Virus record (IMG/VR): IMGVR_UViG_3300030387_000070
Strand: one strand, 5' to 3'
DNA length: 64,000 nt
Source of the DNA: a virus
The translations under genes were made by a program, and so were the position numbers. Positions within the stretch are counted from its first letter, which is position 1. Each line of letters begins with the position of its first letter. The notes below the pieces were generated by a model. The model saw only the letters and a list, made by a program, of their open reading frames with translations. It was not told where the DNA came from and ran no database searches. Shown piece by piece: positions 15,668-63,994 of this stretch.

Positions 15668-16594
15668 ATGCTTACTGAAGAAAAAATCAACGCTTTTGCC
15701 GAAAGGTATTCTGATAAAAGCGGTAAGTTTGTTGTATCGACACTTAACAATGTTATGATCTATGAGGCCGAGTGTGGGTATGAGTTGTTTGATTTTACAA
15801 AAAATGATTTTGTAAAGATGTTTGCAAAATACAATTGGGTGAACTCAAGTCGTTCATTTAGAAATGTGAAATCAATAATCACTGGCTACATCAAAAGTGA
15901 AGATCGTACAAGTTTGTATGACTTGGCTGAATTTTCGGAAAATGACGTAAGTTCAGACGATATGTATGCAGACAAGTATTTTGCATCGGTTGATGAATTT
16001 GTTGACTTATTAAATAAATACGAAGAGCCATATCAGATTCGTATGAACGTGATTGCTGTATTATACTGGATCGGACTTACCGCTGGTGAAATTGTTAATC
16101 TAACAATCAATGATGTTGATTTTGAATCTCGTACTGTTCTCAATAGGACTGGTATTGATGCGAGGTTGATGGATATCATCAAGCAGTGTTATGAAATGAA
16201 ACAATATGATGCTCCCAACATGGGAGGATACAGAACGTTTTATGTCATAAACGGTGATTACATCCTTCGCAAAACAGAGGACAGGACTGGAGCAGACAGT
16301 GACCCAAAGATATCTACAAATACAATTCATACCTATTTTATGAGATTGAATGATATTCTCGAAAAAAGAGGTTGTTCTAAGATTTTGGACCAAAGACATT
16401 TAACAAGAAACAACGAGTATATCAAGGTTTATGACTATTGCAAAACTCATCCAGAATTTAATCTTGTAGAACTTAGCTTCGGAAATGGTAAAGATCCTCT
16501 TGCAGACATTATCGGAAGAAAGTGTAGCAAGGTAGCCTATATTAGCTTCCGGCAAGGATACAAGGGCTGGATTGAGTATTTCCATAAAAATTAA
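15668..16594 (+). CDS. tyrosine-recombinase-like protein, possibly catalytically degenerate
   Basis: IAVLYWIGLTAGEIVNLTINDVDF resembles the GLR..E box but has Thr in place of Arg. RHLTRN is a possible His-x-x-Arg box. The assignment is tentative. Confidence 0.35.
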   Translation: MLTEEKINAFAERYSDKSGKFVVSTLNNVMIYEAECGYELFDFTKNDFVKMFAKYNWVNSSRSFRNVKSIITGYIKSEDRTSLYDLAEFSENDVSSDDMYADKYFASVDEFVDLLNKYEEPYQIRMNVIAVLYWIGLTAGEIVNLTINDVDFESRTVLNRTGIDARLMDIIKQCYEMKQYDAPNMGGYRTFYVINGDYILRKTEDRTGADSDPKISTNTIHTYFMRLNDILEKRGCSKILDQRHLTRNNEYIKVYDYCKTHPEFNLVELSFGNGKDPLADIIGRKCSKVAYISFRQGYKGWIEYFHKN

Positions 16595-16628: not shown

Positions 16629-16649
16629 TAGCTATATAATACAGGATAC
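16629..16649 (+). promoter_or_regulatory. 21-bp motif, forward (copy 2)
   Basis: TAGCTATATAATACAGGATAC, 22 nt upstream of ATG 16671. Contains TATAAT. The upstream sequence is A/T-rich with no clear TTGACA. Confidence 0.6.
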
Positions 16650-19114: not shown

Positions 19115-19798
19115 ATGGTTAATAGGGCAGAAGATCATATTGGTGATGTCTTTGATTTGTTTGAGGTGATTGATGTTATTCGAGATGAAAATAATATTCC
19201 ATCTTACAAATGTCGATGTAAAGAATGTGGATGGACAGGGCTAAAAAATATAGCTCAGGCGAGAGCGGTTAAAGTGTGTCGGCATAAACAATCGAGTGGC
19301 GATTATAGAAATTTTTCTACACGGTGGAAAAACAAAAGAATCGGACGAATCTTTCATGGAATGAAAGCAAGATGCTATGATGTTGATGATAAAAACTATA
19401 TAACGTATGGCATGAAAGGAATTTGTGTTTATCAAGAATGGTTGGATAATCCAAAGTCATTTGAAGAGTGGTCGTTGAAAAATGGATACAAAGATAGTTT
19501 GACAATCGATAGAATTGATTCGACAAAAGATTACTGTCCTGATAATTGCAGATGGATATCATTGGAAGATAATTCAAAATATAAATCCACAACTCGAATG
19601 TTAGAAGTAGATGGTGAAATACATACGGGACGTGATTGGGCGGCAGAATTAGGGCTTGGAACAAACACGATAAATAAATATGTAAGAAGATACGGAGAAG
19701 ATAATACAAAACAATTTATAAGAAGAGTATTAAAGGACCCGGATAAAGTGAATTCTCGACAAGGGAAACAAACTATCTATAATCTTTACATGAACTAA
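19115..19798 (+). CDS. HNH-type homing-endonuclease-like protein
   Basis: LTIDRIDSTKDYCPDNCRWISLEDNS is the HNH_3-like core. N-terminal CxxC zinc motif (CRCKECG). C-terminal HTH-like WAAELGLGTNTINKYVRRYG. Sits between two tRNA genes. Confidence 0.65.
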   Translation: MVNRAEDHIGDVFDLFEVIDVIRDENNIPSYKCRCKECGWTGLKNIAQARAVKVCRHKQSSGDYRNFSTRWKNKRIGRIFHGMKARCYDVDDKNYITYGMKGICVYQEWLDNPKSFEEWSLKNGYKDSLTIDRIDSTKDYCPDNCRWISLEDNSKYKSTTRMLEVDGEIHTGRDWAAELGLGTNTINKYVRRYGEDNTKQFIRRVLKDPDKVNSRQGKQTIYNLYMN

Positions 19799-19805
19799 AT
19801 TGAAA

Positions 19806-19845
19806 TGGCCCAGTGTAAAAACTGAGTACATTGGGCCAAATATTT
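19806..19845 (+). terminator. hairpin terminator after the HNH gene
   Basis: 12-bp stem TGGCCCAGTGTA / TACATTGGGCCA (one G-U pair) with a 9-nt loop, followed by an A/T-rich tail. Confidence 0.5.
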
Positions 19846-19851
19846 ATATGA

Positions 19852-19935
19852 GCACCCGTGGTGAAATTGGCAACCACGATGGACTTAAAATCCATTCCCG
19901 GTAACGGGTTGCGAGTCCGAGTCTCGCCGGGTGCA
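19852..19935 (+). tRNA. tRNA-Leu(UAA), type II
   Basis: Hand fold:
- acceptor GCACCCG/CGGGTGC
- anticodon stem ATGGA/TCCAT with loop CTTAAAA
- extra arm CCCG-GTAA-CGGG
- T arm GCGAG-TCCGAGT-CTCGC (non-canonical T loop)
No encoded CCA. Confidence 0.65.
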
Positions 19936-19940
19936 TATTT

Positions 19941-20013
19941 CTGGGCGTAGCGAAGTTGGCATCGCACCTGTTTTGGGAACAGGGGACCGCAAGTTCAAAT
20001 CTTGTCGCTCAGA
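19941..20013 (+). tRNA. tRNA-Pro(UGG), CCA encoded
   Basis: Hand fold:
- acceptor CTGGGCG/CGCTCAG
- D arm GCGA..TCGC
- anticodon stem CCTGT/ACAGG with loop TTTGGGA
- T arm GCAAG-TTCAAAT-CTTGT
- then A and CCA. Confidence 0.75.
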
Positions 20014-20019
20014 CCACTA

Positions 20020-20106
20020 CGAGGATTCGCCAAGTTGGTAAGGCAGCGGAATTTGACTCCGCCAGCGCTGAACAAGCGGTCACAGGTTCGAGTCCTGTAT
20101 CCTCGG
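20020..20106 (+). tRNA. tRNA-Gln(UUG)-like with a 19-nt extra arm
   Basis: Hand fold:
- acceptor CGAGGAT/ATCCTCG
- D arm TCGCCAAGTTGGTAAGGCA
- anticodon stem GCGGA/TCCGC with loop ATTTGAC
- variable region CAGCGCTGAACAAGCGGTC (CGCT/AGCG hairpin)
- T arm ACAGG-TTCGAGT-CCTGT
- discriminator G. Confidence 0.55.
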
Positions 20107-20113
20107 CTTATAT

Positions 20114-20195
20114 GCGGGTATGGTGTAACTGGCAGCCACGTCAGATTTAGGATCTGATGCCGAAAGGCGTGAGGGATCGTGCCCCTCTACCCGTA
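20114..20195 (+). tRNA. tRNA-Leu(UAG), type II, CCA encoded
   Basis: Hand fold:
- acceptor GCGGGTA/TACCCGT (G1-U72)
- anticodon stem TCAGA/TCTGA with loop TTTAGGA
- extra arm GCC-GAAA-GGC
- T arm GAGGG-ATCGTGC-CCCTC (atypical loop)
- then A and CCA. Confidence 0.55.
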
Positions 20196-20297
20196 CCACG
20201 GTCATAGAATGGTTGCGTACCGTTTGTTGATCTCCTTTACTATTATTCCCGGCTCGCCAGTGATGGTGCAGTAGTGCTTTGTAAGCTGGGTTTTCAT

Positions 20298-20369
20298 GCA
20301 GCGGTCGTACAACGGCTAGTACATCAGCCTTCCAAGCTGAGGATGAGGTTTCGACTACCTTTCGCTGCT
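20298..20369 (+). tRNA. tRNA-Gly(UCC), CCA encoded
   Basis: Hand fold:
- acceptor GCAGCGG/TCGCTGC
- D arm GTAC..GTAC
- anticodon stem TCAGC/GCTGA with loop CTTCCAA
- T arm GAGGT-TTCGACT-ACCTT
- then T and CCA. Confidence 0.75.
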
Positions 20370-20560
20370 CCAATCTTGTATGGGTAGGATCTTTAGCGGT
20401 CAGATCCAGCCGCGCCTGTGCAAGATACCACCCCGAAAGGGGCGAGATATAGGAAATGTGCATCGCTGTTATTCCTTCCTCGTCTATATGATATAGATGC
20501 AATAGTGTTTTATAAGGAAGGTCCCCAGTTGAATAGTTGCAGCTGTTTGACTGGTAATAT

Positions 20561-20634
20561 GGGATAGTAGCTCAGTTGGTCAGAGCTGGCGGCTCATAAC
20601 CGCTTGGTCGCGAGTTCAAATCTTGCCTGTCCCA
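20561..20634 (+). tRNA. tRNA-Met/Ile2(CAU)
   Basis: Hand fold:
- acceptor GGGATAG/CTGTCCC
- D arm GCTC-AGTTGGTCA-GAGC
- anticodon stem GGCGG/CCGCT with loop CTCATAA
- T arm GCGAG-TTCAAAT-CTTGC. Confidence 0.75.
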
Positions 20635-20742: not shown

Positions 20743-20763
20743 TAGCTATGTAACACAGGATAC
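20743..20763 (+). promoter_or_regulatory. 21-bp motif, forward (copy 3)
   Basis: TAGCTATGTAACACAGGATAC, 18 nt upstream of GTG 20781. A/T-rich upstream sequence (CTAATTTTTAAAGTTT). Confidence 0.55.
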
Positions 20764-20780: not shown

Positions 20781-21503
20781 GTGAAACATTATGGAAGTAT
20801 TTGCGAGATTGATGGTTCTAAGATTGAGCCTGTCTCGTGTATCACTGGTGGTTCACCTTGTTAGCCAAGACCTTTCTATTGCCGGCAAGCGGGCAGGTTT
20901 GGCTGGAGAACGGTCTGGTCTATTTATGGAAATGATTCGTGTGATAAAGGAGATGAGGGAGGCCACCAATGGAGAGTATCCAAAATTTGCAATCTGGGAA
21001 AACGTCCCAGGAGCCTTCTCTTCCAACAAAGGAGAAGACTTTAGATGTGTCTTGGAAGAATTTGCACGCATTGTCGAACCAAGTGTTTCAGTTCCTCGAC
21101 CTTCGGGAAGAGAATGTAAGTGGGCAAAAGCTGGAGCAATCGCCGGAAACGGATGGTCCTTGGCGTGGAGATTATTCGACGCTAGTGGTTGGGGTGTTCC
21201 CCAGCGTAGAAAACGTCTCGCGCTTGTCATGGACCTTAGAGGACAATGTGCCGGAAAAGTATTATTTGAGCAAACGGGCGTGTCAGGGGATCTTGATAAG
21301 AGCGTCAAGACGTGGAAAACCATTGCCCGACCTTCTGAAGGATGCACTGCAGGAGATGATTCATTGGTGGGAGATGAAAGATCCTACACTTTGAAGATTC
21401 GTTCTGGCTGCGCAGGGGGGGTAAAGGAGCACTCGTGCAGAATGAATTGAGTGCGACTCTCTCCACTTTGCAAGATCAGACTTTGTTCTGTGTAAAGCAT
21501 TAA
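20781..21503 (+). pseudogene. C5-cytosine DNA methyltransferase, catalytic part (motifs IV-VIII), frame-disrupted
   Basis: - GTG 20781 follows AAGGAGG by 7 nt and gives ..IEPVSCITGGSPC, then TAG at 20862.
- One frame over: QDLSIAGKRAGLAGERSGLF, WENVPGAFSS, GVPQRRKRLALV.
- Further homologous-looking pieces lie in the two other frames: ..LEDNVPEKYYLSKRACQGIL.. and GGKGALVQNELSATLSTLQDQTLF.
- At least 3 frame changes are needed to read all of this. Confidence 0.7.
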
Positions 21504-21515
21504 GGAGGGAACGGA

Positions 21516-22262
21516 TTGGAAAAAGAAACCAGTTTACATAATTTAAAACAAAATATTTCCACAGCGGTATTTGAAAGCCATAGTCAGGATGCTCGATACA
21601 CTCAGCAAGGTAATACAAGCCCAGCTTGTACAGCTCAATGGGGTACTGGTGGTAATAATATGCCGCTTGTCGCTGAAAAGAAAGCCTTTGCTATGCAGCG
21701 TATTGGCGAATATAAGGAAAGCGAACAGGCCAGCACAATGAAATCTCGTGATTATAAAGATGCAACTGATCTTGTAGTTGAAGAGAAAGAGGTGAAATGT
21801 GCTGGGTTTCCACTTGGATTTAGAGCAGAAAATACGAAATGCTACGATGAAGTGGCTACTACGCTTTGCAATGGTACGCGGCCTGGATTTACTACTGGAT
21901 GTGTTCTCAATTGGATTGTTCGCCGCTTGACTCCTGTTGAGTGTGAACGGTTACAGGGTTTTCCTGATGGATGGACCGATATTGGCGAGTGGGTTGACGA
22001 AAATGGTAAAAAGCACAAGCCAGCCGATTCTCCTCGGTACAAGGCGCTCGGCAATTCGATTGCTTTGCCTCAGTGGTATTGGATTTGCCAGAAGATGAAA
22101 CCGTATATTGGTGAAAATCCTACGCTTGGCAGTCTTTTCGATGGAATCGGTGGCTTTCCGCTTGTCTTTGAAAGTACGTATGGTGATGGTACTGCTATCT
22201 GGGGATCTGAAATTGAATCGTTTTGTGTTGCGGTGACAAAGAAGCATTTTCCAGAAGACTAA
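21516..22262 (+). CDS. C5-cytosine DNA methyltransferase, target-recognition and motif IX-X part with a C-terminally appended motif I-II
   Basis: TTG start 7 nt after AAGGAGG. Contains WGTGGNNMPLV, VRRLTPVECERLQGFPDGWT and RYKALGNSIALP. It then continues into LGSLFDGIGGFPLVFE..IWGSEIESFCVAVTKKHFPED*, which is the FxGxGG AdoMet motif normally found at the N-terminus. Confidence 0.75.
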   Translation: MEKETSLHNLKQNISTAVFESHSQDARYTQQGNTSPACTAQWGTGGNNMPLVAEKKAFAMQRIGEYKESEQASTMKSRDYKDATDLVVEEKEVKCAGFPLGFRAENTKCYDEVATTLCNGTRPGFTTGCVLNWIVRRLTPVECERLQGFPDGWTDIGEWVDENGKKHKPADSPRYKALGNSIALPQWYWICQKMKPYIGENPTLGSLFDGIGGFPLVFESTYGDGTAIWGSEIESFCVAVTKKHFPED

Positions 22263-24270: not shown

Positions 24271-24291
24271 TAGCTAAGTAATACAGGATAC
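24271..24291 (+). promoter_or_regulatory. 21-bp motif, forward (copy 4)
   Basis: TAGCTAAGTAATACAGGATAC, 37 nt upstream of ATG 24328. Confidence 0.5.
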
Positions 24292-26193: not shown

Positions 26194-27409
26194 ATGGATA
26201 ATACAGTTCATGACGCTCAAAGATTGAAGGAGCTTCAGGCACTCCCTCTTGAGCGAAAGATTCAAATCACTCAAAATCGCATCCAGGAATGGTATATGCA
26301 CTATGATGGCGGTGTGTACGTAAGCTTCTCCGGTGGTAAGGATTCTACTGTACTTGCTCATTTGACAAAGCAGCTGTTCCCAGATGTCCCGCTTGTGTTT
26401 AGTAATACAGGCTTGGAATACTCGTCAATCCAGAAATTTGCACGAAACGCAGATGCTGTTTTTGTTTATCCCAAGATGGGATTTAGTGATGTGGTCTCTA
26501 CATATGGTTATCCTCTTATCTCTAAAGAAGTGGCTGAAGCGATTTACTACGCTAGACGAATCAGAAATAGCGGCGCAGCCACCATGAGAGAGAGAGAGAG
26601 TAAGAACAACTCTCAGGAAAAAACAAGAACTTCTGGGTTTAAGGATGAACTGTCTGGGAGGTGTCTTTAGCAACCCGTGGCTTTACGATGAAACAGGAGT
26701 CTTTCAAGGAAACAGACGGACGATTCTACTTGGTAATGAACCGGGAGCTGAAATGCAGGCTGGAACAAAATCCATGTTCAATAAGGAAAAATGGTTGCCA
26801 GCAACACAAGAACTTCCGTTTGCAATTTCTCATTACTGCTGTTCAGTTATGAAAAAAGGTCCGATGAAGAAGTACGCAAGGGCAACCAAGCGTAAACCTA
26901 TTATTGGAACGTTGACTGATGAAAGTCGTGTTCGCAAGCAAGCTTGGATTCGACATGGGTGTAATGCTTTTGATAGCAAGTCTCCAACAAGTCAGCCTAT
27001 GAGTTTTTGGACTGAGCAGGACGTGCTCACTTTCATCAAACAGTCAGGAATTCAAATTGCAGATGTCTATGGCGATATTGTTCCTACGAGTGATAAGCCG
27101 GATGCGCCATTGTGCTGTACTGGGTGTGATCGTACCGGATGCACGTTTTGCGGATTTGGAGCTCACAACAAGAATGACAATAGATTCTCAACTCTTGCAG
27201 AACTTGACCCAAAGAAGTACGAGTATAGTATGAATGGTGGTCAATGGGTAGACAATCCAAAATATGATGCAACTGCACCAGAGTATGATGGTGTATGGAA
27301 GAATTGGAACCCGAAGAAAATCTGGGTGCCAAGCAAAGAAGGTCTTGGACTGAGAAAAGTTTTCGATATGTTTAATGAACTGTATCCAAACAACAAAATT
27401 CAATATTAA
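26194..27409 (+). pseudogene. PAPS-reductase-like PP-loop protein, frame broken
   Basis: YVSFSGGKDSTVLAHL is the PP-loop SGGKDS motif. The reading frame changes by +1 between track ORFs 26194-26670 and 26645-27409. The second frame is already open from 26588 (ERERVRTTLRKKQELLGLRMNCLGG..). Confidence 0.65.
26586..26600 (+). repeat. (GA)7G dinucleotide tract
   Basis: GAGAGAGAGAGAGAG, read directly. It lies where the two frames of the PAPS-reductase-like gene overlap. Confidence 0.95.
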
Positions 27410-33323: not shown

Positions 33324-36300
33324 ATGCCAAGTAGTCTACACACACACTCGAATTACAGTCTACTAGATGGGTACTCTTCTCCTGAAGAAAATCTAAAAAG
33401 AGCATCAGAACTTGGTTTGAAAGCCATTGCCATTACGGAACATGGTGAGGTAACAAGCTGGCCGTACTATTCTGAACTAAAAGGCAAGTATCCGAATGTC
33501 AAACTTCTTTATGGTATCGAGGCATACGAGTGCGAAGATAGGGAAGTCAAGGACAAGAATAGTAAATATTGGCATTTAATCATTATTGCCAAGAACGAAG
33601 CTGGTCGTCAGGCAGTCAATCGCTTATCTACACTCGGTCATCTTCATGGCTTTTACAGCCGTCCTCGTATCACAAAAGAGGATATCGCTAAGGAAGATAC
33701 GAATAATTTGATTATCCTGTCTGCTTGTTTGGCGAGTAGGCTGTCAAGAACGGATGATTATGACACTTGTGTCAAGCTGGTTCAAGAGTATAAGAGCTTA
33801 TTCCCTCACTATTATCTTGAGGTTCAGGCTCATGCAAACAGTGAACAAGCAAAATATAATCAGAAAATCATGCGGTTGGCAAACGATACTCATACAAAAG
33901 TAGTCGTCACAAACGATGTTCATGCTGCTACCAAAGAGGATCTTTATTATCAAGATTATTTCCTTCGTATCGCTCATGATACGGAAACCGCCACAGAAAT
34001 CTATGAAGGGTGCTACTTCATGTCTCGTGATGAGCAGCATAGAGCCCTTGATAATCAGATTGGATACGATGCGGCAGAATGGTGTATCAATAATACTGAC
34101 GAGGTTGCTGATCTGTGTGATGATGTGGATATGCCTTGGCATGAACCGGAACTTCCCAAAATTGAGATTCCGCCACAGTATTCTAATTCGGCAGCTTATC
34201 TGAAAGACCTTGTAAAAGAGGGATGTAAGAAACGTAGCATTGATAAGTTTGATGTAGAAAAGCAGAAAATCTATCGAAAACGTGTTGATGATGAGCTGTT
34301 TGTCATTGAGAAGAAAGACTTCTGTGACTACTTTTTGATTCTGGTTGATTACATCAACTGGTGTAAGAAAAATGATGTCATTGTTGGCCCTGGTCGTGGT
34401 TCTGCTGCTGGTTCTCTTGTATGTTACCTGATTGGCATTACGCAGCTTGATTCCATCAAGTATGAACTTGACTTCGGACGATTCCTTACCATTGAGCGAA
34501 AAGACCTTCCTGACGTTGATGTTGATGTCAGTGACCGTGCCAAGGTTGTCGAGTATCTGACACAGAAGTATGGAGAAGATCGAGTAGTTCAGGTTATGAA
34601 CATCGTGTACACTACTCCGGTTACTTCAATTCAAGATGTTGGTAAGGTGCTCGGTTTCCCGTATGCCGAGATAAGAAAAATCAGTGAGAAGTTCGTTCAA
34701 AAGACATGGAAAGATTGCCTTGAAGCCAACACAGAAGTAGCTGAGAATCCAAAATATAAGGAACTACTTGATATTGCAAGTCATATCAATGGTCGCCCAC
34801 GAGGATATGGTATCCATGCTGGCGGTGTTATTGTTTGCCGACATCCTTATTACGAGTATATCGGTATCCGGCATGGTACTGACGGAGAGCACGTTATTTC
34901 CGTTGATAAGGTGATGGACGAGAAGATTGGACTTGTTAAGTTTGATATTCTTGGTGTTGCGTCGCTGGTTGCCATTGATGAAGCGAAGCGTGAGGATAAT
35001 ATTCCAGACTGGGAAATTGATATCAACAATCCTGAATTTGAAAACGACAAGGCAACTTACGATTTGATTTGCTCCGGTAAGACAGACAATCTATTCCAGA
35101 TTGAATCGTCCGGCATGAAAGATCTGGTTGCGCAGCTTCAACCTAGGTCGATTGAAGAACTATCCGCTTTGATTGCTCTTTATCGCCCTGATGCAATGCC
35201 GTCCATTCCTACATACGTTGACTGCAAGTATCATCCCGAACACATTCATTATTTCCATCCTGATATGGAACCAATTTTCCGCAGTACCTATGGCGTGAAC
35301 ATCTATCAGGAACAGAGTATGAAGCTCACAAAGGTCTTTGGTGGCCGAAGCGATGCTGGTGCTGATAGAATGCGTAAGTGCTTGGCAAAGAAAAAACCTG
35401 AGAAGGTCAAGGAAGAGGTAGAACTTCTTCACGATGAAATTCTTGCAAATGGATACGATAAAGCAACCGCTGAGTATATTTGTAACGAGTTGTCAACGAA
35501 GGGCGGCTATGGTTTCAATAAGTGTATTTCTGGCAACACGAAGTTGTGGAGAATGAGAAGTGGTCGGTTTGAGCCTACTGTTGCAGAAATGTACAAGATT
35601 CGCAATGATAGGAAGTTTGCTATCTTGACAAATCACACACATCTTAGGGACAAATATAGACGATACGGTTACGGTAGTGCGTTGTCAATGTGTGATGATG
35701 GACGCATTCGGATGAATAAAATTATTGATATCAAGTATTCTGGATATCGAATGCTGTATCGTGTAACAACTGAGACCGGTGCGACCATTGAATGTACAGA
35801 TAATCATAAATTCCCGACAACTGATGGCATTAAGTTGCTTTCTGATATGAGAATTGGTGATGAGTTATATGAGATTGGTGCTTATGAGGTTTGCAGAAAC
35901 AAGTATAATCTGACGGATGGAAATTTCGAAAGCAATTTGCCGAAGCCGGGACAAATGGGGTTCCAGACGAAGGAATTTAGTGCGAATCGTCTGTTTGAAG
36001 AGACGAAAGAAAAGAATAGACTGAAAAGAAGCCCATGTGAAATTTGCGGTAGAGAATATTCCGAAGATGCTCGTTTTGAAGTACACCACAAAGATTTTGA
36101 CCATACGCATAATGTACCTGATAACTATACTTGGTGCTGTGCATCGTGTCACAAGAAACTTCATTACGCTCACGGGCGAGTAAAACAGTATGAAAAGGGC
36201 ATCCCGTCAAAGACCGCTAAGATTATTTCTATTGAGGAAATTGGTTTTGATGATGTCTATGATGTGACAATGGATGCTCCGAATCACAATTTTGTAGTGT

Positions 36301-37340
36301 CAACTGGTATTGTAACTTGCAACTCTCATTCACAAGCCTATGCTGACATCTGTCTCCAGACTGCATATTTGAAAGCCCACCATCCGCTTGCATTCTTTAA
36401 GGCTATGCTGAACCTGAATAAAGCAAAGGTCGGCAAGGTCAACAAGATTATGGTGGATGCACGCAGCTTTGATATTCAGATTCTTCCGCCGAGTATCAAT
36501 CGTTCCGGCATGGACTTTACTGTGTCAAATGGTAAAATCCTGTTTGGCTTATCTGCTATCGGTGGTATTGGCGATACGCTTGCTGAAACTATCATTGCAG
36601 AACGAGATAGAAATGGAAAATTTAAGGGACTTGATGATTTCACGAGTCGTGTTCGTGCAACGAAGGCGCAGATTATTGCATTGGTTAAATCCGGTGCGAT
36701 TCCTACAAAGAACAAACGAATATTCTTGGAAAAGTACATTACCAGCGGTCTGGAACAATCTGAGTTTAAGCCAGTCAGTACACTTCCTACCAAGGCAGTT
36801 TTGCTGAGTAAGTGGGGTATTGATACAGAGCATTATAAGGTTGGTAAAAAGGTTGACAAAGAAACCGTCTTACGGATCTATAATGAAAAGCGCCGTGTCG
36901 TACATGAAACCGAGAAGCTGAAAAAGAAAGAAGCGTATATGGACGAGCAGACCACAAAATATCTACAAGATGAAGAACTTTGGGAGTTCCAGACTTTGCA
37001 GACCTTTATCAGTGACCCGAATCCTTTCGAGAAGGCATTTACTTATATCAAGGATTTCTCTGAAATCGAAGAAGGTGATTCTTGTGTACTGGTTGGTATT
37101 ATCGCAAAGATTCAGAAGAAGAAAACGAAGACTGGTATGCAGTTTGCATTTGTAAATCTGTATTCTGGCGATGGTATTATTGAGCTGACCGTATGGCCGA
37201 GAGTCTTGTCGGATTATCAGGATTTGATTGTAAAGGGAAGTCAGGTGGCTGTGCTTGGAAAGAAGGAAGATGAATCGCACGTTATTGCAAGCAACTTCAA
37301 ACCTTACAAGCAGTGGTTGCATGATAGAGAGATAGCGTAA
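33324..37340 (+). CDS. dnaE: DNA polymerase III alpha subunit (DnaE-type) interrupted by an intein
   Basis: PHP N-terminus (LHTHSNYSLLDG, ITEHG). GPGRGSAAGSLVCYLIGIT, ERKDLPDVDVDV, HAGGV. GYGFNK|C...N|SHSQAYA..AYLKAHHP. Confidence 0.9.
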   Translation: MPSSLHTHSNYSLLDGYSSPEENLKRASELGLKAIAITEHGEVTSWPYYSELKGKYPNVKLLYGIEAYECEDREVKDKNSKYWHLIIIAKNEAGRQAVNRLSTLGHLHGFYSRPRITKEDIAKEDTNNLIILSACLASRLSRTDDYDTCVKLVQEYKSLFPHYYLEVQAHANSEQAKYNQKIMRLANDTHTKVVVTNDVHAATKEDLYYQDYFLRIAHDTETATEIYEGCYFMSRDEQHRALDNQIGYDAAEWCINNTDEVADLCDDVDMPWHEPELPKIEIPPQYSNSAAYLKDLVKEGCKKRSIDKFDVEKQKIYRKRVDDELFVIEKKDFCDYFLILVDYINWCKKNDVIVGPGRGSAAGSLVCYLIGITQLDSIKYELDFGRFLTIERKDLPDVDVDVSDRAKVVEYLTQKYGEDRVVQVMNIVYTTPVTSIQDVGKVLGFPYAEIRKISEKFVQKTWKDCLEANTEVAENPKYKELLDIASHINGRPRGYGIHAGGVIVCRHPYYEYIGIRHGTDGEHVISVDKVMDEKIGLVKFDILGVASLVAIDEAKREDNIPDWEIDINNPEFENDKATYDLICSGKTDNLFQIESSGMKDLVAQLQPRSIEELSALIALYRPDAMPSIPTYVDCKYHPEHIHYFHPDMEPIFRSTYGVNIYQEQSMKLTKVFGGRSDAGADRMRKCLAKKKPEKVKEEVELLHDEILANGYDKATAEYICNELSTKGGYGFNKCISGNTKLWRMRSGRFEPTVAEMYKIRNDRKFAILTNHTHLRDKYRRYGYGSALSMCDDGRIRMNKIIDIKYSGYRMLYRVTTETGATIECTDNHKFPTTDGIKLLSDMRIGDELYEIGAYEVCRNKYNLTDGNFESNLPKPGQMGFQTKEFSANRLFEETKEKNRLKRSPCEICGREYSEDARFEVHHKDFDHTHNVPDNYTWCCASCHKKLHYAHGRVKQYEKGIPSKTAKIISIEEIGFDDVYDVTMDAPNHNFVVSTGIVTCNSHSQAYADICLQTAYLKAHHPLAFFKAMLNLNKAKVGKVNKIMVDARSFDIQILPPSINRSGMDFTVSNGKILFGLSAIGGIGDTLAETIIAERDRNGKFKGLDDFTSRVRATKAQIIALVKSGAIPTKNKRIFLEKYITSGLEQSEFKPVSTLPTKAVLLSKWGIDTEHYKVGKKVDKETVLRIYNEKRRVVHETEKLKKKEAYMDEQTTKYLQDEELWEFQTLQTFISDPNPFEKAFTYIKDFSEIEEGDSCVLVGIIAKIQKKKTKTGMQFAFVNLYSGDGIIELTVWPRVLSDYQDLIVKGSQVAVLGKKEDESHVIASNFKPYKQWLHDREIA
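35523..36323 (+). mobile_element. intein (267 aa) with HNH endonuclease domain inside DnaE
   Basis: Inserted in the conserved GYGFNK-SHS box. Begins CISGNTKLW, has block B IECTDNHKF, an HNH core CEICG..FEVHHKDFDHTHNVPDNYTWCCASCHKKLH, and ends NHNFVVSTGIVTCN followed by Ser. Confidence 0.85.
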
Positions 37341-37352
37341 GAGGGTTATAAA

Positions 37353-39683
37353 GTGGCAGATAAGAAATTTAATGAAAATATGATCCGTTGCTACATTAGG
37401 ATAAAACGAGTCTTTTATCCGAAAGATGGGAAGGAGGTGGAGCCCGGCGGCTTCGCCACTTTCTCTGCCGAAGTGATAAAAGTCAAGCAGGGGAACCCCA
37501 TTATGAGCCGATACAGTGACCTCCGACTGAAAGGCAACGTCCCTAGCCTTGATATGAATAAGACTTATTCGTTCTGTGGTGAGTATGTTCACCATGAAAA
37601 GTTTGGGGACCAGTATAAAATCGTCTATATGAACGAGTTCCAAGAGATTACTGACCCAGAAGAACAGAAAAGTTTTCTCCATTTTATCTTAACAGAACAT
37701 CAGTTTGAGATGCTTTACGAAGCATTTGATAATCCGTATGAGATCATCAAGAACGGTGATATCAAGTCTCTTTGCACTGTTAGTGGTATCACAGAAGGTC
37801 GAGCACAGAAAATTATCGATGCCTTTGAAAATAACATTGATAACAGCGAAGCATACACGAAGCTGATTGAGTATGGTTTGACTCCAAGTGCAATCGGAAA
37901 ACTTGTTCATCAATATCACGGTGCAGACACTCTTGTGAAGAAAATTGAAGAGAATCCTTATGTTCTGATTGACGATGTATATGGGATTGGATGGAAGAAA
38001 GCTGACGCTCTTGCTTTGAATATGGGATTGAAGCCAAACTCTCAGTTCCGAATTGAAGCTTACGTCATGCATTTTCTTGCTGATCGTGCCGAAGAAGGCA
38101 ATTCTATCATCCCGGCAAACCAGACAATCAATAGTTGCATTAAGGAACTTGGCTTGGATGAGGGTGACCAAGAGGTTATCAAGAGAGCACTTTTCCATCT
38201 GCACGATGTCCGCGAAACGCTTTGGTGGAGTGATGATCGTCAGGAATTTGCTTTAACAAGAGTGTGGAATCTGGAAAATAAGATTTCAAAGGAAATTAAG
38301 CGTCTGGCGGATGCACCTGTCGAGCCGATTGGTCGAAACATGGATGCTGCAATCGACGAAGCAGAACATGCTCTTGGCATCGAGTACACTGAGGAGCAGA
38401 GAGATGCTATTAAAAAGGTATGCTCTAGCAACATCTGTATCTTAACAGGCTACGGCGGAACTGGTAAAAGTACCGTTGTCGCTGGTGTTCTAAAGGTTCT
38501 TCGTGGTAAGTCTTTTGCTCAGACTGCACTTTCTGGTCGTGCCGCAGCTCGTATGCAGGAGATTACTGGTCAGGATGGAAAGACCATTCACCGTCTTCTT
38601 GGCTACGACATCGAGAACGGTGGGTTTGTTCACGATAAGGACAATCCTCTGGAAGAAGACATTATCATTCTGGATGAGACCTCTATGGTTGGAGCTCAGT
38701 TGTTCTATGACTTGATTCAGGCTATCGAGACCGGAAAGCGATTCATCATGATTGGCGATGACGGCCAGCTTGAGAGTATTGGTATGTGCAACATCTTCAA
38801 GGATATGCTTGCCTCCAAGGTTGTTCCGGTTGCTCGCTTGACGAAGATTCACCGTCAGGCTGCTAAGTCAGCGATTATCACAGAGAGCATCAAGGTTCGT
38901 AATGCCACGCAGTTGGTTCCTTACGGTTGGGCTGGTAATGAGATTCGTGGTGAGCTGCGTGATTTGGAGCTAGATATCTACAAGGATGCAGGCGAGTCGT
39001 TTAACCACATCATCAATCAATACCGTACCTTATATAATAAGGTAGGGAATGACAGCGCAAAGATTCAGATTGTACTTCCGCAGAAGCTCCGTGGTAGCAT
39101 TTGCACCTACGAGGTGAATAACGCCATTCAGGAAATTGTAAATCCGAGTCGTGGTCAGGCAGAAGCAAAGGTCACAATCTACGGTGATGGCAAGGATAGA
39201 GTGTACACTCTGCGTGAGGGCGATCAGGTCATTATCAACAAGAATAACTATGAGCTTCATACATACAATCTCAAGACAAAGAAAAAGGAAGAGAAGTGTC
39301 CGGTGTTCAACGGAAACCGTGGCATTATCCGAAAGATTGAGAGTAGTTTTATTCTGGTTGACTTTGACCAGTGGGGAACTATCTTCATTCCTCATTATTT
39401 TGGTGGGAACAACATCTGGGCAACACTTGAACTCGCTTATGCTTTGAGTTGTCATAAACTGCAAGGTAGCGAAGCTCCGTATGTAATTGTCGGCATGGAC
39501 AACTCTGCATACCTGATGTTGACGAGAGAATGGCTCTATACGGCCATCACTCGTGCCAAGAAGTATTGTGTGATTTGCGCCGAAACTCATGCTCTTGATC
39601 GGGCTGTAAAGACTTCAAGAGTGCCATATAAGCGGACGTTCTTGAAGGAATTTTTACGGAAAGAATTTTCAGAAAAGCGTTGA
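37353..39683 (+). CDS. RecD-like SF1 DNA helicase
   Basis: Walker A ILTGYGGTGKST and Walker B IIILDETSMV. C-terminal YALSCHKLQGSEAPYVIV..TAITRAKK. Confidence 0.8.
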   Translation: MADKKFNENMIRCYIRIKRVFYPKDGKEVEPGGFATFSAEVIKVKQGNPIMSRYSDLRLKGNVPSLDMNKTYSFCGEYVHHEKFGDQYKIVYMNEFQEITDPEEQKSFLHFILTEHQFEMLYEAFDNPYEIIKNGDIKSLCTVSGITEGRAQKIIDAFENNIDNSEAYTKLIEYGLTPSAIGKLVHQYHGADTLVKKIEENPYVLIDDVYGIGWKKADALALNMGLKPNSQFRIEAYVMHFLADRAEEGNSIIPANQTINSCIKELGLDEGDQEVIKRALFHLHDVRETLWWSDDRQEFALTRVWNLENKISKEIKRLADAPVEPIGRNMDAAIDEAEHALGIEYTEEQRDAIKKVCSSNICILTGYGGTGKSTVVAGVLKVLRGKSFAQTALSGRAAARMQEITGQDGKTIHRLLGYDIENGGFVHDKDNPLEEDIIILDETSMVGAQLFYDLIQAIETGKRFIMIGDDGQLESIGMCNIFKDMLASKVVPVARLTKIHRQAAKSAIITESIKVRNATQLVPYGWAGNEIRGELRDLELDIYKDAGESFNHIINQYRTLYNKVGNDSAKIQIVLPQKLRGSICTYEVNNAIQEIVNPSRGQAEAKVTIYGDGKDRVYTLREGDQVIINKNNYELHTYNLKTKKKEEKCPVFNGNRGIIRKIESSFILVDFDQWGTIFIPHYFGGNNIWATLELAYALSCHKLQGSEAPYVIVGMDNSAYLMLTREWLYTAITRAKKYCVICAETHALDRAVKTSRVPYKRTFLKEFLRKEFSEKR

Positions 39684-39715
39684 CAATCATGTTCGTATCC
39701 TGTATAATATAGCTA
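39680..39715 (+). promoter_or_regulatory. promoter with reverse-oriented 21-bp motif (copy 5)
   Basis: TTGACA at 39680-39685 (overlaps the helicase stop codon), a 17-nt spacer, then TATAAT at 39703-39708. GTATCCTGTATAATATAGCTA occupies 39695-39715. Confidence 0.7.
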
Positions 39716-39753
39716 TGAAAAGTCTCCATCTCGGAGGCTTAAAATTCTCTCTT

Positions 39754-39774
39754 TAACTATATAATACAGGATAC
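39754..39774 (+). promoter_or_regulatory. 21-bp motif, forward (copy 6)
   Basis: TAACTATATAATACAGGATAC. Confidence 0.55.
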
Positions 39775-39785
39775 GGGAAAGGAAT

Positions 39786-39817
39786 GGCTTGCTCGTAATG
39801 GCAAGCCTTTCTTTATT
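39786..39817 (+). terminator. rho-independent terminator-like hairpin
   Basis: GGCTTGC (39786-39792) pairs with GCAAGCC (39801-39807), followed by TTTCTTTATT. Confidence 0.6.
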
Positions 39818-39822
39818 CATTA

Positions 39823-39843
39823 CAACTATATAACACAGGATAC
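39823..39843 (+). promoter_or_regulatory. 21-bp motif, forward (copy 7)
   Basis: CAACTATATAACACAGGATAC, 14 nt upstream of ATG 39857 (AAGGAGG lies between). Confidence 0.55.
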
Positions 39844-39856
39844 GCAAGGAGGCTTT

Positions 39857-41188
39857 ATGACAGATAAAGAGCTCATAGGTAAGCTCGATGCGATGGTAAA
39901 GGCATTGCAGAGCACGAAGAAAAAGACAGATAAGACCCGCATTTTGCTGGATGAACGAAAGGATTTTGGGGCTGAAGCTGACGAGTTGATGGCCTTCTTC
40001 CGATTCTTGCTTGATCCGGCAATCGTAACTGGACTGTCGGATGCAAAAATCAATAAGCAGGTGAGTGCCAAGCCTGAAATTGATATCCAGTATCTCAGTT
40101 GTGGATACCTTTATATTATGGGTGCTGGTCACAACACTGGTTCTGACGCATCCATCGCAACAATTCAAAATTATTTACATAAAAATCCTGAAAATGAAGA
40201 GTTTCTGAAGCGGCTGTTTACCAAAAATCTTCCGATTGGCGTTGAGGCAGCTGCCATCAATAAGGTATATGGCGAGGAAATTATTCCTGTCTGGGAAGTC
40301 CAGCAGGGATATCCAATCGATAAGGTGAAGTTGAAACCCGGCACATGGTTTAGTCTGAGTCAGAAGATGAACGGCAATAGGGGCACAATGTATCGTGGAG
40401 ATTTAATTTCTCGTCAAGCGCAGAAGTTTGAAGGACTCGATCATATTAAGAATGATCTGCTCGCTCTATATGATGGAGGTGTGGAGAGGCGAGATTCTTT
40501 GGTGTTTGATGGCGAACTCATTTATAAGAACCCTGAAGGAATGTCGGACGGAGAGGCGTTTCGTTTCGGCACTGGCCTACTTAATTCTGACAGCAAGAAC
40601 AAGACTGGAATTAAATTTGTGATTTTTGATGTAATTCCTGTTGTAGAGTTCGACTGTGAAAAGTGTGCTGTCCAGTATCAAACCCGCCGGGAATGGCTAA
40701 ATTGTCTTCGTGCGGAGATTGCTCGTAAGAATCTTGAAAACATCGAAATTGTTCCAATGGTATACGAAGGTACTGACCAGAGTGTGATTCCGAAGTGGCT
40801 TGATTATGCTGTGGCACATGATTGGGAGGGTTTGATGTTGAACACCAATGTTCCTTATCAGCGTAAGCGTCATACCGGCTGTCTCAAAATTAAGCGTTTT
40901 TACACTGTTGACCTGCGAATCACCGCGATTGAAGAGGGTCAGAATCGTCTGGCTGGTACGATGGGCGCTCTGGTTGTGGACTACAAGGGCAACGAGCTTC
41001 GTGTCGGCTCTGGTTTTGATGATGCTACGAGAGCTGCTGTGTGGGCAAATCCTGATAATTACATCGGCAAGATCGTTGAATGTAAGTACAAAGAGGTCAC
41101 GATGGATAAAAAGACCGGTCTTGAGTCTCTGCAATTCCCGACCTTTGTAAGATTTAGAGATGACAAGAATGAGGTGTCTTATGGCTGA
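39857..41188 (+). CDS. ATP-dependent DNA ligase
   Basis: Motif I SQKMNGNRG, III VFDGELIY, IV WEGLMLN, V CLKIKRF. C-terminal OB-like region. Confidence 0.75.
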   Translation: MTDKELIGKLDAMVKALQSTKKKTDKTRILLDERKDFGAEADELMAFFRFLLDPAIVTGLSDAKINKQVSAKPEIDIQYLSCGYLYIMGAGHNTGSDASIATIQNYLHKNPENEEFLKRLFTKNLPIGVEAAAINKVYGEEIIPVWEVQQGYPIDKVKLKPGTWFSLSQKMNGNRGTMYRGDLISRQAQKFEGLDHIKNDLLALYDGGVERRDSLVFDGELIYKNPEGMSDGEAFRFGTGLLNSDSKNKTGIKFVIFDVIPVVEFDCEKCAVQYQTRREWLNCLRAEIARKNLENIEIVPMVYEGTDQSVIPKWLDYAVAHDWEGLMLNTNVPYQRKRHTGCLKIKRFYTVDLRITAIEEGQNRLAGTMGALVVDYKGNELRVGSGFDDATRAAVWANPDNYIGKIVECKYKEVTMDKKTGLESLQFPTFVRFRDDKNEVSYG

Positions 41189-59982: not shown

Positions 59983-60810
59983 ATGATTATTGATTGCAAA
60001 TCTATTGCACAAGATATCAAAGATAAAATCAAGAATATTATCGCAGAGGCCGATTACACTCCTGTTTTACATATTTATCAAGTAGGGGATAATCCTGCGT
60101 CTAATGCTTATATTAGAGGTAAATTGCGTGACTGTGAAGAGGTGGGGATCGAAGTAGAACTTATTAAACTGCCAGAAAATATTACTGAAGATGAATTGAA
60201 TAACAAGATCTTAGAAGATTATAATTGGGAATATGTGAACGGTATCATTGTTCAGCTTCCGTTGCCAAAACATATCAATCCTAAAAATATCTACATTCCA
60301 GACGCAGTTGATGTTGATGGATTTAATTCTACATCCAAATTTCAGCCTTGCACTCCGCTGGGCGTTATGAAGATTTTTGACTCCATCGGTTACGATCTGG
60401 ATGGCAAGAATGTGCTTGTGTGTGGTCAATCTGATATCGTAGGTCGTCCGTTGGTCAATATGCTGATTAAGCGGCACTGTAATGTAATCTCTGTGAATAG
60501 TACGGGTTCCGCCATGAAAGCCACTGCCATCGGATTTGGAATAGTCAATGTTATTATTTCCGCCGTTGGTAAGCGTGACTTTATTTCGACGTTTGATTTA
60601 TTTGATACGGATGTTTGCATCGACGTTGGTATCAACTATGACGAGAACGGAAAGCAGCACGGCGATTGTACTGATGCTGTTTATGATATGAAGGATGTCA
60701 AAGTAACACCTCGTATCGGCGGAGTTGGCCTTATGACTCGCGCTATGCTCTTATATAATGTATGTGTGGCGAAATACGGGGCAGAGAAGATGGAAGAGGT
60801 GATTGAATGA
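59983..60810 (+). CDS. folD: bifunctional methylenetetrahydrofolate dehydrogenase / methenyl-THF cyclohydrolase
   Basis: VGDNPASNAYIRGKLRDCEEVGI, GIIVQLPLPKHI, DVDGF, PCTPLGVMKIF, GQSDIVGRPL and TPRIGGVGLMTRAML. Confidence 0.85.
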   Translation: MIIDCKSIAQDIKDKIKNIIAEADYTPVLHIYQVGDNPASNAYIRGKLRDCEEVGIEVELIKLPENITEDELNNKILEDYNWEYVNGIIVQLPLPKHINPKNIYIPDAVDVDGFNSTSKFQPCTPLGVMKIFDSIGYDLDGKNVLVCGQSDIVGRPLVNMLIKRHCNVISVNSTGSAMKATAIGFGIVNVIISAVGKRDFISTFDLFDTDVCIDVGINYDENGKQHGDCTDAVYDMKDVKVTPRIGGVGLMTRAMLLYNVCVAKYGAEKMEEVIE

Positions 60811-61037
60811 AAGAACAGAAAATTCCGCTTGAACAGCAACTTATATATAACGTAGAAGAAGTAGCAACCCTCTTGAAAACTACACGCCCTGTGGTATACT
60901 CTTTAATAGAAAAGGGTTATCTTCCGAGCATTGTTCTTGGCAGACGGAAAGTGACGAGGAAGGCACTACTTACATTTCTTGATAAGAACGAGAACACTAA
61001 TTTTAGCCAAATCTTGAAATCAAAACAACTATCGTAA
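60807..61037 (+). CDS. excisionase-family HTH DNA-binding protein
   Basis: YNVEEVATLLKTTRPVVYSLIEKGYLPSIVLGRRKV..KALLTFL fits the HTH_17/Xis-type pattern. It is the last phage ORF before the junction. Confidence 0.6.
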   Translation: MKEQKIPLEQQLIYNVEEVATLLKTTRPVVYSLIEKGYLPSIVLGRRKVTRKALLTFLDKNENTNFSQILKSKQLS

Positions 61038-61435: not shown

Positions 61436-63994
61436 TTACTGGATGCCGGTAACAGGATAATCCTGTGCTTCCACGGCCTTCTTCAGCACCTCATCGTCCA
61501 CTTCGGCGTTCAGGGTAACGATGGCGGTACCGGCTTCGTGGCTGACAACAGCCTCGTCCACCTGCGGCAGAGCCTCCAAAGCCTTCTTGACGCGGGCTTC
61601 ACAGTGATGGCACATCATACCTTCTACGGTCAGGGTCTTTTTCATAGCAATCTTCTCCTTGTAAGTTGTATCTTCCTCCGCTGCGGGCTGCACAAGGGCA
61701 GCGGGCAGGGCAGGGACGTGTTTGGGCGGGTGGTCATGTTTTGCGCTGTGCAGGTCAAACAGGTTCAGCCGCAAGGCGTTGCTCACCACGCAGAAGCTGG
61801 AAAGGCTCATGGCAGCTGCGCCGAACATGGGGTTCAGCGTCAGTCCCAATGGAATGAACACACCGGCTGCCAGCGGGATGCCGATGATGTTATAGATGAA
61901 CGCCCAGAACAGGTTTTCGTGGATGTTGCGCAGGGCAGCACGGCTCAGCCGGATGGCGGCGGGCACGTCCGACAGCTTGGAGTTCATCAGTACCACGTCT
62001 GCAGCGTCAATGGCTACGTCTGTGCCTGCGCCAATGGCAATGCCGGTGTCAGCGCGGGTCAGGGCAGGAGCATCGTTGATGCCGTCGCCCACCATAGCTA
62101 CCTTGCCGTACTTTTGCAGCTGCCGGATGACGGCCTCCTTGCCCTCGGGCAGCACTCCCGCGATCACCTCGTCCACCCCGGCCTGTCGGCCAATGGCCTC
62201 GGCAGTGCGCTGGTTGTCGCCGGTCAGCATCACGACCCGGATACCCATATTTCGCAGCTCCCGGATGGCCTGCGGGCTGTCCTCCTTGATGGTATCTGCC
62301 ACTGCGATAACGCCCAGCAAACGACCTGCGCCACCAAAGAACAGGGGCGTCTTACCCTGTGCAGCCAGCGCGGCGGCTTCGGCTTGCAGCGCAGCGGGGA
62401 TGGCGACCTTTGCGCCGATAAAGGCCGCATTGCCGCCAAAGATCTCCTTGCCTTCCAGCGTGGCGGTAAGGCCGTTGCCCGGCAGGGCGGTAAAATCGGT
62501 AACAGAGGGCAGCTCCAGCTGCTTTTCCTCCGCATAGGCCAGCACTGCCCGCGCCAACGGGTGCTCGCTGCGGCCCTCCAGCGCGGCGGCCAGCGTGAGC
62601 AGCTCGGTCTCAGTCACGCCCGCAGCGGGCAGAAGGTCGGTGACGGTAGGTTCGCCGCAGGTGATTGTGCCGGTCTTGTCCAGCGCTACGATGCGGGTGC
62701 GTCCGGCTTCTTCCAGCGCCGCAGCGGTCTTGAACAGGATGCCGTTCTTCGCACCAAGGCCGTTGCCCACCATAATAGCCACCGGCGTTGCCAGACCCAG
62801 CGCACAGGGGCAGCTGATGACCAGCACCGAGATGCCCCGCGCCAGCGCGTAGCCCACATCCCGCCCCAGCAGCAGCCAGACAAGGGTGGTGACCACCGCA
62901 ATGCTGATGACCGCAGGCACGAAAAAGCCGGATACGGTATCTGCGATCTTTGCAATGGGGGCTTTGGTGGCGGCGGCATCGCTGACCATGCGGATGATCT
63001 GCGCCAGCGTGGTGTCCTCGCCTACGCGGGTAGCGCGGCACTGCAAATAGCCGGACTGGTTGGTGGTGGCGGCGCTTACCTTATCGCCCACGGCCTTGTC
63101 CACCGGGATGCTTTCGCCGGTCAGGGCGCTCTCGTTCACGGCGCTGCTGCCCTCCAGCACAATGCCGTCCACCGGGATGTTCTCGCCCGGACGCACCACA
63201 AAGATGTCCTCTTTCTGCACCTGCTCAATGGGCACGGTCACCTCGGCACCGTCCCGCAGCAGGGTGGCGGTTTTGGGGGCTAGCTTCATCAGGCTTTTGA
63301 GCGCATCGGTGGTCTTGCCCTTGGAGCGTGCCTCCAGCATTTTGCCCACCGTGATGAGGGTCAAAATCATGGCGGCAGACTCAAAATAGAACTCCATCAT
63401 GTAGTGCATGACTAGTTCCTCGTTGCCGTGTAGCTGCGCATCGGTCATGGCAAACAGGGCGTAGGTGCTCCATACAAAGCTTGCCATCGAGCCCATAGCC
63501 ACCAGCGTATCCATGTTGGGGGAGCGGTGCACCAGCCCCTTGAAGCCGTTGATGAAAAATTTCTGGTTGATCACCATCACGATGCCCGCCAGCAGCAGCT
63601 GTACCAGCCCCATGGCAATGTGGTTGCCGTCAAACCAGCGGGGCAGCGGCCAGCCCCACATCATGTGCCCCATGGAAAAGTACATCAGCACCAGCAAAAA
63701 GCCCAGCGAGGCGATAAGCCGCCGCTTTAGCTTGGGTGTTTCGTGGTCGGCCAGTGCGTCCAGCTCTGCGCTGGTACTGGCAGCGGCAGCAGCGGTCTTT
63801 TTAGGGCTTGCACCGTAACCGGCCTGCTCTACGGCACGGATAATGGCGGAATCTTCTGCTGTGCCCTCCACCCCCATGGAGTTTGTCAGCAGGCTTACCG
63901 AACAGCCGGTAACGCCCGGCACGCTCTTTACGGCCTTTTCTACCCGGGCAGAGCAGGCCGCGCAGCTCATGCCGGTAACGTTGAATTGTTCCAT
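61436..63994 (-). CDS. copA: copper-translocating P-type ATPase
   Basis: 852 aa. N-terminal [21 protein letters not shown] motif [30 protein letters not shown], and a C-terminal second [19 protein letters not shown]-rich. Confidence 0.95.

Follow-up and report, generated by a model that had tools for sequence, protein, structure and literature searches.

We have analysed a 64,000-nucleotide stretch of viral DNA, IMG/VR record IMGVR_UViG_3300030387_000070 (the window), in which three copies of a 20-bp motif are stacked between a RecD2-like helicase gene and an ATP-dependent DNA ligase gene. The motif is probably the operator box of the prophage's own repressor, a protein of the MrpR/YopR/SroF family encoded at 15668–16594, and the counterpart of the SPBRE of phage SPbeta. 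We favour this reading because the motif is asymmetric, stands reversed in sigma-A promoters, including that of the repressor operon, and has changed together with the repressor. The reading is also favoured because the genome is SPbeta-like and encodes an MrpR/YopR homologue, and the published behaviour of this family fits the motif. Binding of the repressor to the box, repression, the source of the ligase transcript and any role of a short RNA are matters that we infer from the sequence.

The 20-bp box and its candidate repressor

The three spacer copies share the consensus AGCTATATAAYACAGGATAC. Searched as a 19-mer with up to three mismatches, the motif has seven matches in the window, compared with 0.03 expected, and none of 100 shuffled sequences reached seven. 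With a weight matrix, the seven boxes score 32–36 bits and everything else in the window at most 12 bits. The conserved core of 20–24 bp is asymmetric: the TATA-A-TATA centre alone is symmetric, and the two arms, GTATCCTG and AGCTAT, are unrelated. When viral contigs were scanned for the exact pattern, further site families were found in relatives (X and Y, below); with these and a site before the RNA polymerase gene, the total comes to about 12 boxes per genome. Variation in the core (GGATGC, for example) is confined to particular sites and is not genome-wide.

Box 1, the first of the stack, lies reversed in a promoter (P1) at the end of the helicase gene, where it spans the spacer, the -10 hexamer and the bases to about +1. 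P1 alone in the window matches the sigma-70-type consensus at 12 of 12 positions. Another promoter, TTGACT-17-TATAAT, is built in the same way, with a box reversed inside it, and drives a MazF/PemK-like gene (15195–15614) and the 308-aa repressor-like gene. In family X of the relatives, a TTGACA-17-TATTAT promoter with a reversed box precedes a small hairpin with a T-run, after which come a forward box, a ribosome-binding site and a gene. Family X is a paralogue of the cassette formed by P1, its hairpin and the second box of the stack, and it and the ligase cassette may be duplicates of one another. Family Y has a separate promoter, TTGAAT-17-TGgTATAAT, between a reversed and a forward box; this promoter heads an operon with a gene for a 927-aa protein similar to the single-chain RNA polymerase YonO of SPbeta (E 1.6e-22). 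Reversed-then-forward pairs were found in 107 distinct contexts of the three locus families and are always spaced by 60–64 bp, most often by 62. The box appears to be used independently of orientation, because reversed copies lie in consensus promoters and inverted pairs bracket a separate promoter. In one relative (L174:1248-7690), the box-bracketed sigma-A promoter is followed by a structured-looking leader of ~260 nt and then by the operon of the YonO-like polymerase.

The family proved too uniform for a covariation test and, therefore, a sister clade was sought. It was found through a 36%-identical repressor homologue, at a locus (L288) whose gene order is that of the window; ENA ERZ15610570 NODE_3134 belongs to this clade. 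PemK (MazF-like) is 94% identical between the two loci, a 133-aa protein 89% and the DnaD-like protein 84%; the corresponding values are 34% for the repressor homologue and 29% over 48 aa for a 108-aa protein encoded upstream. Both boxes that flank the repressor operon, one reversed in the operon promoter and one forward after the terminator, are replaced in L288 by GTATAGTAWACAGAATTT with position and orientation unchanged, and the -35 hexamer, the terminator and the ribosome-binding site are all retained. Box specificity appears to track the repressor allele, as it should in an immunity region where repressor and operator form a cognate pair. The sister-clade repressor (P0079) was not found in viral and metagenome contigs, and the sister-type box gave only 41 unrelated single matches in IMG/VR.

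We identify the 308-aa protein as a distant homologue of MrpR, YopR and SroF with a predicted integrase-like two-domain fold. It matches a PHROG integrase family with E 3.5e-11. The Pfam family MrpR_N_CB is matched by the window protein alone at E 7e-4, under the curated cut-off, by 21 of 21 close homologues (best E 4e-6) and by 18 of 30 members when distant ones are included (best E 7.7e-16). A search with the close-homologue profile against 1.84 billion representatives retrieved 70 relatives of about 320–345 aa. The deeper family profile finds YopR (E 8.8e-12) and MrpR (5e-11) among the sequences of the PDB, both at full length, and the next match is the tyrosine recombinase XerA (E 1.6e-3). 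Aligned with hhalign to SPbeta YopR, the deeper profile reaches a probability of 97.5% and the close-homologue profile 0.6%; distant homologues were needed first. When the predicted model was compared with the PDB by Foldseek, the top six matches were SroF-DNA, SroF-Sar, YopR (three chains) and MrpR. Where recombinases have their first catalytic arginine (in GLR), the window protein has threonine (GLT), which is invariant in the 21 close homologues; this position is not conserved in the wider family. Neither P0083 nor the window repressor had useful matches among annotated phages.

Two neighbouring genes may be mentioned in this context. The MazF/PemK-like toxin gene shares its operon with the repressor-like gene, which it directly precedes; in Bacillus arbitrium phages, host MazF is targeted by phage factors, according to one report (PMC10769878). 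A second integrase-family ORF (9136–9963; Pfam Phage_integrase, E 1e-15), 47% identical in the sister clade, adjoins the DnaD-like gene.

In SPbeta, SPBRE is bound by MrpR in 10 promoter regions, one of which belongs to the operon of MrpR itself (PMC10516654). SroF of phi3T is a monomer that encircles a non-palindromic 26-bp box, reading 24 bp of it, and its many boxes lie far apart in the genome (bioRxiv 10.1101/2025.11.27.690993). The present system shares with these a homologous repressor (E about 1e-11) with an integrase-like fold, and a long non-palindromic box in ~10–12 copies at distant early promoters, with sites that include the repressor operon, the neighbourhood of the replication genes and the upstream side of a YonO-type polymerase gene. 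The SPbeta element, as we derived it from the SPbeta record, is CAAATACAAAWAATATGTATA; its sites lie in the spacers of TAGACA-17-TATAAT promoters, upstream of the -35 hexamer, or between the start site and the ribosome-binding site. The yonX promoter of SPbeta is bracketed by two SPBREs 64 bp apart, and in both phages two boxes separated by ~6 helical turns can bracket a promoter. Additionally, the replication genes of the window follow the order of SPbeta yorF-G-I-J-K-L.

There are also clear differences. The host is a gut anaerobe of the Clostridia rather than a Bacillus, and the repressor operon contains the MazF-like toxin gene. The boxes occur in both orientations and as inverted pairs with a spacing of 62–63 bp, whereas all SPbeta boxes are co-oriented with the genes, and the forward boxes follow terminators and have no evident -35/-10 context. 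Unlike in SPbeta, no homologue of AimR was found in the window and the fetched relative loci, nor were YopM, YopN, YopO, YopP, YopQ and YosL (tblastn), the rest of the ~135-kb genome not having been searched. It is the arbitrium module (aimR-aimP-aimX), and not the repressor-box pair, that defines arbitrium phages.

Integrase-fold monomeric repressors with long, dispersed boxes were described in 2023–2025, in Bacillus SPbeta-like phages only. If the operator reading is correct, the same switch runs a widespread family of ~135-kb prophages of Faecalibacterium, a major human gut commensal, and both the operator sequence and a heteroimmune sister allele are at hand. Several of its features would then be unreported for SPbeta, namely the use of both box orientations, inverted pairs at a fixed spacing of six turns, the coupling of boxes to terminators, and boxes that serve as junctions for the exchange of gene cassettes.

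The helicase-ligase spacer and its conservation

The earlier note had described the spacer as three stacked promoters (P1 to P3) that carry the motif, two of them driving only tiny hairpin units. All the elements that it described are present where it placed them (Table 1), and P1 is a convincing host-type promoter. The motif itself is real, repeated and conserved, as had been noted, but it is not specific to promoters: copies are found in either orientation and as inverted pairs, and the motif changes with the repressor gene.

Table 1. Positions of the spacer elements, boxes and genes discussed in the text
Feature	Position	Strand	Remarks
DnaD-like initiator gene	9969–10655		
Second promoter, same design as P1	15123–15157	+	TTGACT-17-TATAAT; reversed box 15138–15157
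MrpR/YopR/SroF-like integrase-fold protein, 308 aa	15668–16594	+	Proposed box-binding repressor
Solo forward box	16630–16649	+	After the repressor-gene terminator, before a polynucleotide kinase/RNA ligase gene
Solo forward box	20744–20763	+	After the tRNA cluster terminator, before methyltransferase genes
Solo forward box	24272–24291	+	Before a Sak4-like ATPase gene
RecD2-like helicase gene	37353–39683	+	Pfam AAA_30, HHH_RecD2, UvrD_C_2, SH3_13
P1, sigma-A promoter	39680–39685 and 39703–39708	+	TTGACA, 17-nt spacer, TATAAT; start predicted near 39715
Box 1, reversed 20-bp box	39695–39714	-	GTATCCTGTATAATATAGCT on the + strand
Hairpin 1	39720–39740	+	Stem AAGTCTCC (39720–39727), loop ATCTC, GGAGGCTT (39733–39740); 8-bp stem, 5-nt loop
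C/U-rich linker	39741–39754	+	AAAATTCTCTCTTT; directly after hairpin 1; conserved, entropy 0.13
Box 2 (P2 of the earlier note), forward	39755–39774	+	AACTATATAATACAGGATAC; 62 bp from the outer end of box 1
Intrinsic terminator	39779–39817	+	A-rich lower stem; stem 39786–39807, 8 pairs, 5 of them G-C; tail TTTCTTTATT
Box 3 (P3 of the earlier note), forward	39824–39843	+	AACTATATAACACAGGATAC; 69 bp after box 2; abuts the ligase ribosome-binding site
AAGGAGG and ATP-dependent DNA ligase gene	39846–41188	+	ATG 39857; Pfam DNA_ligase_OB_2
Excisionase-like small ORF	60809–61037		At the G+C junction
CopA-type heavy-metal ATPase gene	61436–63994	-	98% identical to Faecalibacterium intestinale

The TGA stop codon of the helicase gene (39681–39683) overlaps the -35 hexamer of P1. 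Hairpin 1 is predicted to fold near the 5′ end of the P1 transcript; it was not called as a + strand intrinsic terminator in the scan, and its tail, AAAATTCTCT, is without a canonical U-tract. The terminator at 39786–39807 closes the DnaE-helicase operon, and the ligase gene is the first of a ~20-kb block of genes on the same strand in the ORF map. The whole of 39680–39856 offers one promoter, three boxes and one terminator in a single dissectable piece. Upstream, the gene for the DnaE-type DNA polymerase III alpha subunit (33324–37340) contains an intein (residues 747–998; Pfam Intein_splicing), and some relatives have a 1071-aa version of DnaE without it.

A search with the ligase protein gave 80 loci on viral contigs of ~80–140 kb, mostly from the human gut, to which five metagenome contigs with an identical ligase protein were added. 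The comparison across relatives that had been proposed in the earlier note finds the region conserved, with the full layout of the spacer kept in 61 of 61 distinct upstream sequences. In an alignment of 65 distinct sequences, the mean column entropy of the helicase-ligase intergenic region is 0.22; at third codon positions it is 0.35 in the helicase gene and 0.62 in the ligase gene. The -35 and -10 hexamers of P1 and the 5′ arm of the terminator stem are invariant (entropy 0), the ACAGGATAC blocks have entropies of 0.06–0.11 (0.06 for that of box 3), and the spacers between the elements 0.5–0.7. Hairpin 1 is paired in 99.7% of the cells of 40 sequences, with a variable loop; its pair changes are C-G to U-A in five sequences and U-G to U-A in four. 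Six core pairs of the terminator are invariant in the same number of sequences. No near-identical DNA was found among annotated phages, and no relatives of the ligase in the reference genome collection. In a lineage with a 74–77% identical ligase (L332:648-2550, L336), DnaE is followed by an ERCC4-type nuclease gene that overlaps the ligase start, and the RecD2 helicase, the spacer and the boxes are all absent. Thus, the stack is not required for ligase expression as such.

If the boxes are operators, one predicted repressor monomer would clamp each of them in the lysogen. Occupancy of box 1 would occlude P1, and boxes 2 and 3, together with the terminator, would stop residual and read-through transcription into the ligase and nucleotide-metabolism genes. 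Upon induction the repressor would be removed and P1 would fire, with most of its transcripts ending at 39808–39817 as a ~100-nt RNA that consists of the 5′ hairpin, the linker and the terminator. The ligase block would then be expressed via read-through, via weak initiation inside box 3, or both. The P1 transcript of 40–60 nt envisaged in the earlier note has to be lengthened, as hairpin 1 is not a terminator and transcription is expected to run to 39786–39817, about 100 nt.

The conservation of this unit also suggests that it could be a gene for a ~100-nt small RNA in its own right, or a loading site for antitermination in the style of lambda N or Q; either can coexist with the operator model, and we regard the proposal as unlikely. 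The predicted P1 RNA (39715 to about 39815) folds with -30.7 kcal/mol and a z-score of -4.5. Its promoter is an invariant consensus, its hairpin is kept despite a variable loop and shows one compensatory change, its linker is conserved beyond the spacers, and a paralogous cassette of reversed-box promoter, small hairpin with a T-run and forward box is found at another locus of relatives (family X). However, the covariation amounts to one event, and no Rfam family matched the RNA at the gathering threshold, with only noise up to E 10. The best duplex of the linker with the start region of an ORF in the window has -24.3 kcal/mol, within the range of 30 shuffled linkers (-19.5 to -29), so that no target in the window is better than the controls. 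No antiterminator gene was identified, and the related lineage described above couples the ligase gene directly to the gene upstream without such a unit. The PR'-qut-tR' region of lambda comprises a strong constitutive promoter with a protein site between its -35 and -10 hexamers, a hairpin and a near terminator, and by default produces a short RNA (6S RNA). The resemblance of the stack to this region, or to N-nut, is one of layout only: no Q- or N-like gene was found here, and the box, which co-varies with a repressor homologue, is also present at places remote from any promoter. A leaderless mini-ORF of 13 codons from the ATG at 39715 was considered and rejected; it is not conserved, because this ATG reads ATA in most relatives.

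Three 20-bp repeats within 150 bp, in a helicase-ligase spacer and next to a strong promoter, also recall replication-origin iterons, for which P1 would supply a primer or transcriptional activation. We find this scarcely credible, since the same box recurs at about nine other sites per genome, by a ribosome-binding site or in a promoter. With their mixed orientation and spacings of 62 and 69 bp, the boxes do not resemble an iteron array. The skew does not change at the stack, and the DnaD-like initiator gene lies elsewhere (Table 1).

Forward boxes, terminators and promoters

The second and third boxes had been proposed to be promoters, P2 and P3. The sequence does not support this, since they have no -35 hexamer, key positions of the -10 hexamer vary, and the invariant part is the flanking ACAGGATAC. 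A -35-like hexamer is absent at every forward box. The ‘TATAAT’ within boxes 2 and 3 is moderately conserved (entropy 0.27–0.38), with variants such as TATAAC, CGTGAC and AGTAAC; TATAAC is the rule at P3. Over all forward boxes, the hexamer varies where sigma-A needs A (position 2) and T (position 6), with TATAAC, AGTAAY, TGTAAC and CGTGAC, and the ACAGGATAC flank is kept in 86% of 488 instances. This pattern, a conserved flank and a variable hexamer, fits a protein site and not a sigma-A -10 element. Of the purposes suggested in the earlier note, an array for a factor that binds the motif, one among several options, comes close to the reading that the evidence favours.

A number of observations weigh against the boxes being operators of the 308-aa protein. 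The window contains three strong intergenic terminators on the + strand (16599, 20701 and 39786), and each of them is followed after 20–30 nt by a forward box and then by a ribosome-binding site, with no other promoter-like sequence between; this is how a promoter would look. All solo boxes are co-oriented with the genes. The operator model leaves unexplained why a consensus promoter fires straight into a terminator. The joint change of box and repressor is based on one sister clade and two sites, and the ORF of the 108-aa protein (14777–15103) also diverges between the clades, in surroundings where the genes are 73–94% identical. As it is divergent in the same manner as the repressor, this neighbour is also a possible partner of the box. 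In sequence, the box resembles neither SPBRE nor the phi3T box. Finally, the AlphaFold model of the 308-aa protein is mediocre (pLDDT 66.8, TM about 0.27), and its C-terminal half is poor.

The 108-aa protein may instead act together with the repressor, perhaps as an antirepressor. Its ORF stands behind a TTGACG-16-TATAAT promoter at 14707–14734. An acidic DNA-mimic antirepressor was considered, but the pI of 6.1–7.6 is not obviously acidic.

The arrangement of terminators and forward boxes is accommodated directly if the forward boxes are phage promoters, used by the YonO-like polymerase or by the host polymerase with a phage factor, that restart transcription after host-type terminators, with the reversed copies shutting off or opposing early sigma-A promoters. 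We consider this rather improbable. The motif would have a suitable form, being 20 bp long and asymmetric, with an AT-rich stretch followed by GG, and ending 2–36 nt before ribosome-binding sites; the forward boxes at 16630, 20744 and 24272 are each just upstream of one. Its solo copies have the orientation required, and relatives do encode a YonO-like polymerase, with a solo forward box ~30 nt upstream of its gene. However, YonO of SPbeta starts at only one site, that of a late operon, and the host polymerase reads early and replication genes (PMC5467207); the SPbeta region there is without an SPBRE. The boxes studied here stand before early genes, before replication genes and even before the polymerase gene, and none was found in the 6–7 kb downstream of the polymerase gene. 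In family Y, only a few bases separate the forward box from a good sigma-A promoter upstream of it. The boxes have also changed along with the repressor gene next to them, and reversed copies would transcribe into regions without leftward genes.

A more specific form of this proposal, in which the box is the promoter of a YonO-type single-chain RNA polymerase, or a promoter and repressor operator at once, has in our view a slim chance of being correct. It is suggestive because a forward box comes after each of the strong terminators and the gap contains no other promoter. No promoter sequence is known for this class of polymerase (PMC5467207), and the box would, if the proposal were true, be the first for a YonO-type polymerase in any system. 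The reversed copies in sigma-A promoters would then switch host transcription off as the phage enzyme appears.

Solo forward boxes (those ending at 16649, 20763 and 24291, and those of family X in relatives) form mosaic junctions at their 3′ edge. The sequences upstream of these junctions fall into 1–3 classes, one of them dominant, and those downstream into 3–6, several of which are different genes. One box copy has a partial duplication of its end, ...ACAGGATACgcAGGATAC.

The inverted pairs could accordingly be imagined as the ends of miniature mobile elements, or as recombinase sites that shuffle gene cassettes, given that inverted 20-bp repeats enclose a constant ~42 bp, that the mosaic junctions and the duplicated box end fall at the box edge, and that a second integrase-family gene is encoded at 9136–9963. 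This is very improbable, as target-site duplications are absent and the interiors of the pairs in family X bear no relation to those in family Y. The positions of the boxes are functional, in promoters or next to ribosome-binding sites, and the mosaicism is explained by ordinary homologous exchange at repeated regulatory sequences. A comparable situation is reportedly found in the promoter-early stem-loop (PeSL) cassettes of T4-type phages, units of stem-loop and promoter at gene-cassette boundaries with mosaic exchange. Both systems have a short repeated unit, with a stem-loop and a promoter-like sequence, at the boundaries of mosaic gene cassettes. However, PeSL promoters are ordinary sigma-70 early promoters, in contrast to the unit repeated here, which is a box of the repressor type without a -35 hexamer.

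The prophage and its neighbouring genes

The phage genes are all on one strand and have a G+C content of about 40%, and the last 3 kb of the window have 62%, a gap of 20 points between phage and host. We consider the window to include the end of a Faecalibacterium prophage because of this jump, the match of the CopA-type ATPase and the excisionase-like ORF (Table 1), and we assign it to a SPbeta-like prophage of ~135 kb.

Some features of the surrounding genes are recorded here as minor observations. Six tRNA genes form a cluster (19756–20634) behind a TCGACA-16-TATAAT promoter. The cluster ends at a terminator, which is followed by a forward box, and an HNH endonuclease gene (19115–19798) lies just upstream of it. 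At 20791–22262, two adjacent ORFs both match DNA methyltransferase families and look like one split gene. Likewise, the two adjacent ORFs at 26194–27409, both with matches to PAPS-reductase-like families, look like a single gene that has been split.

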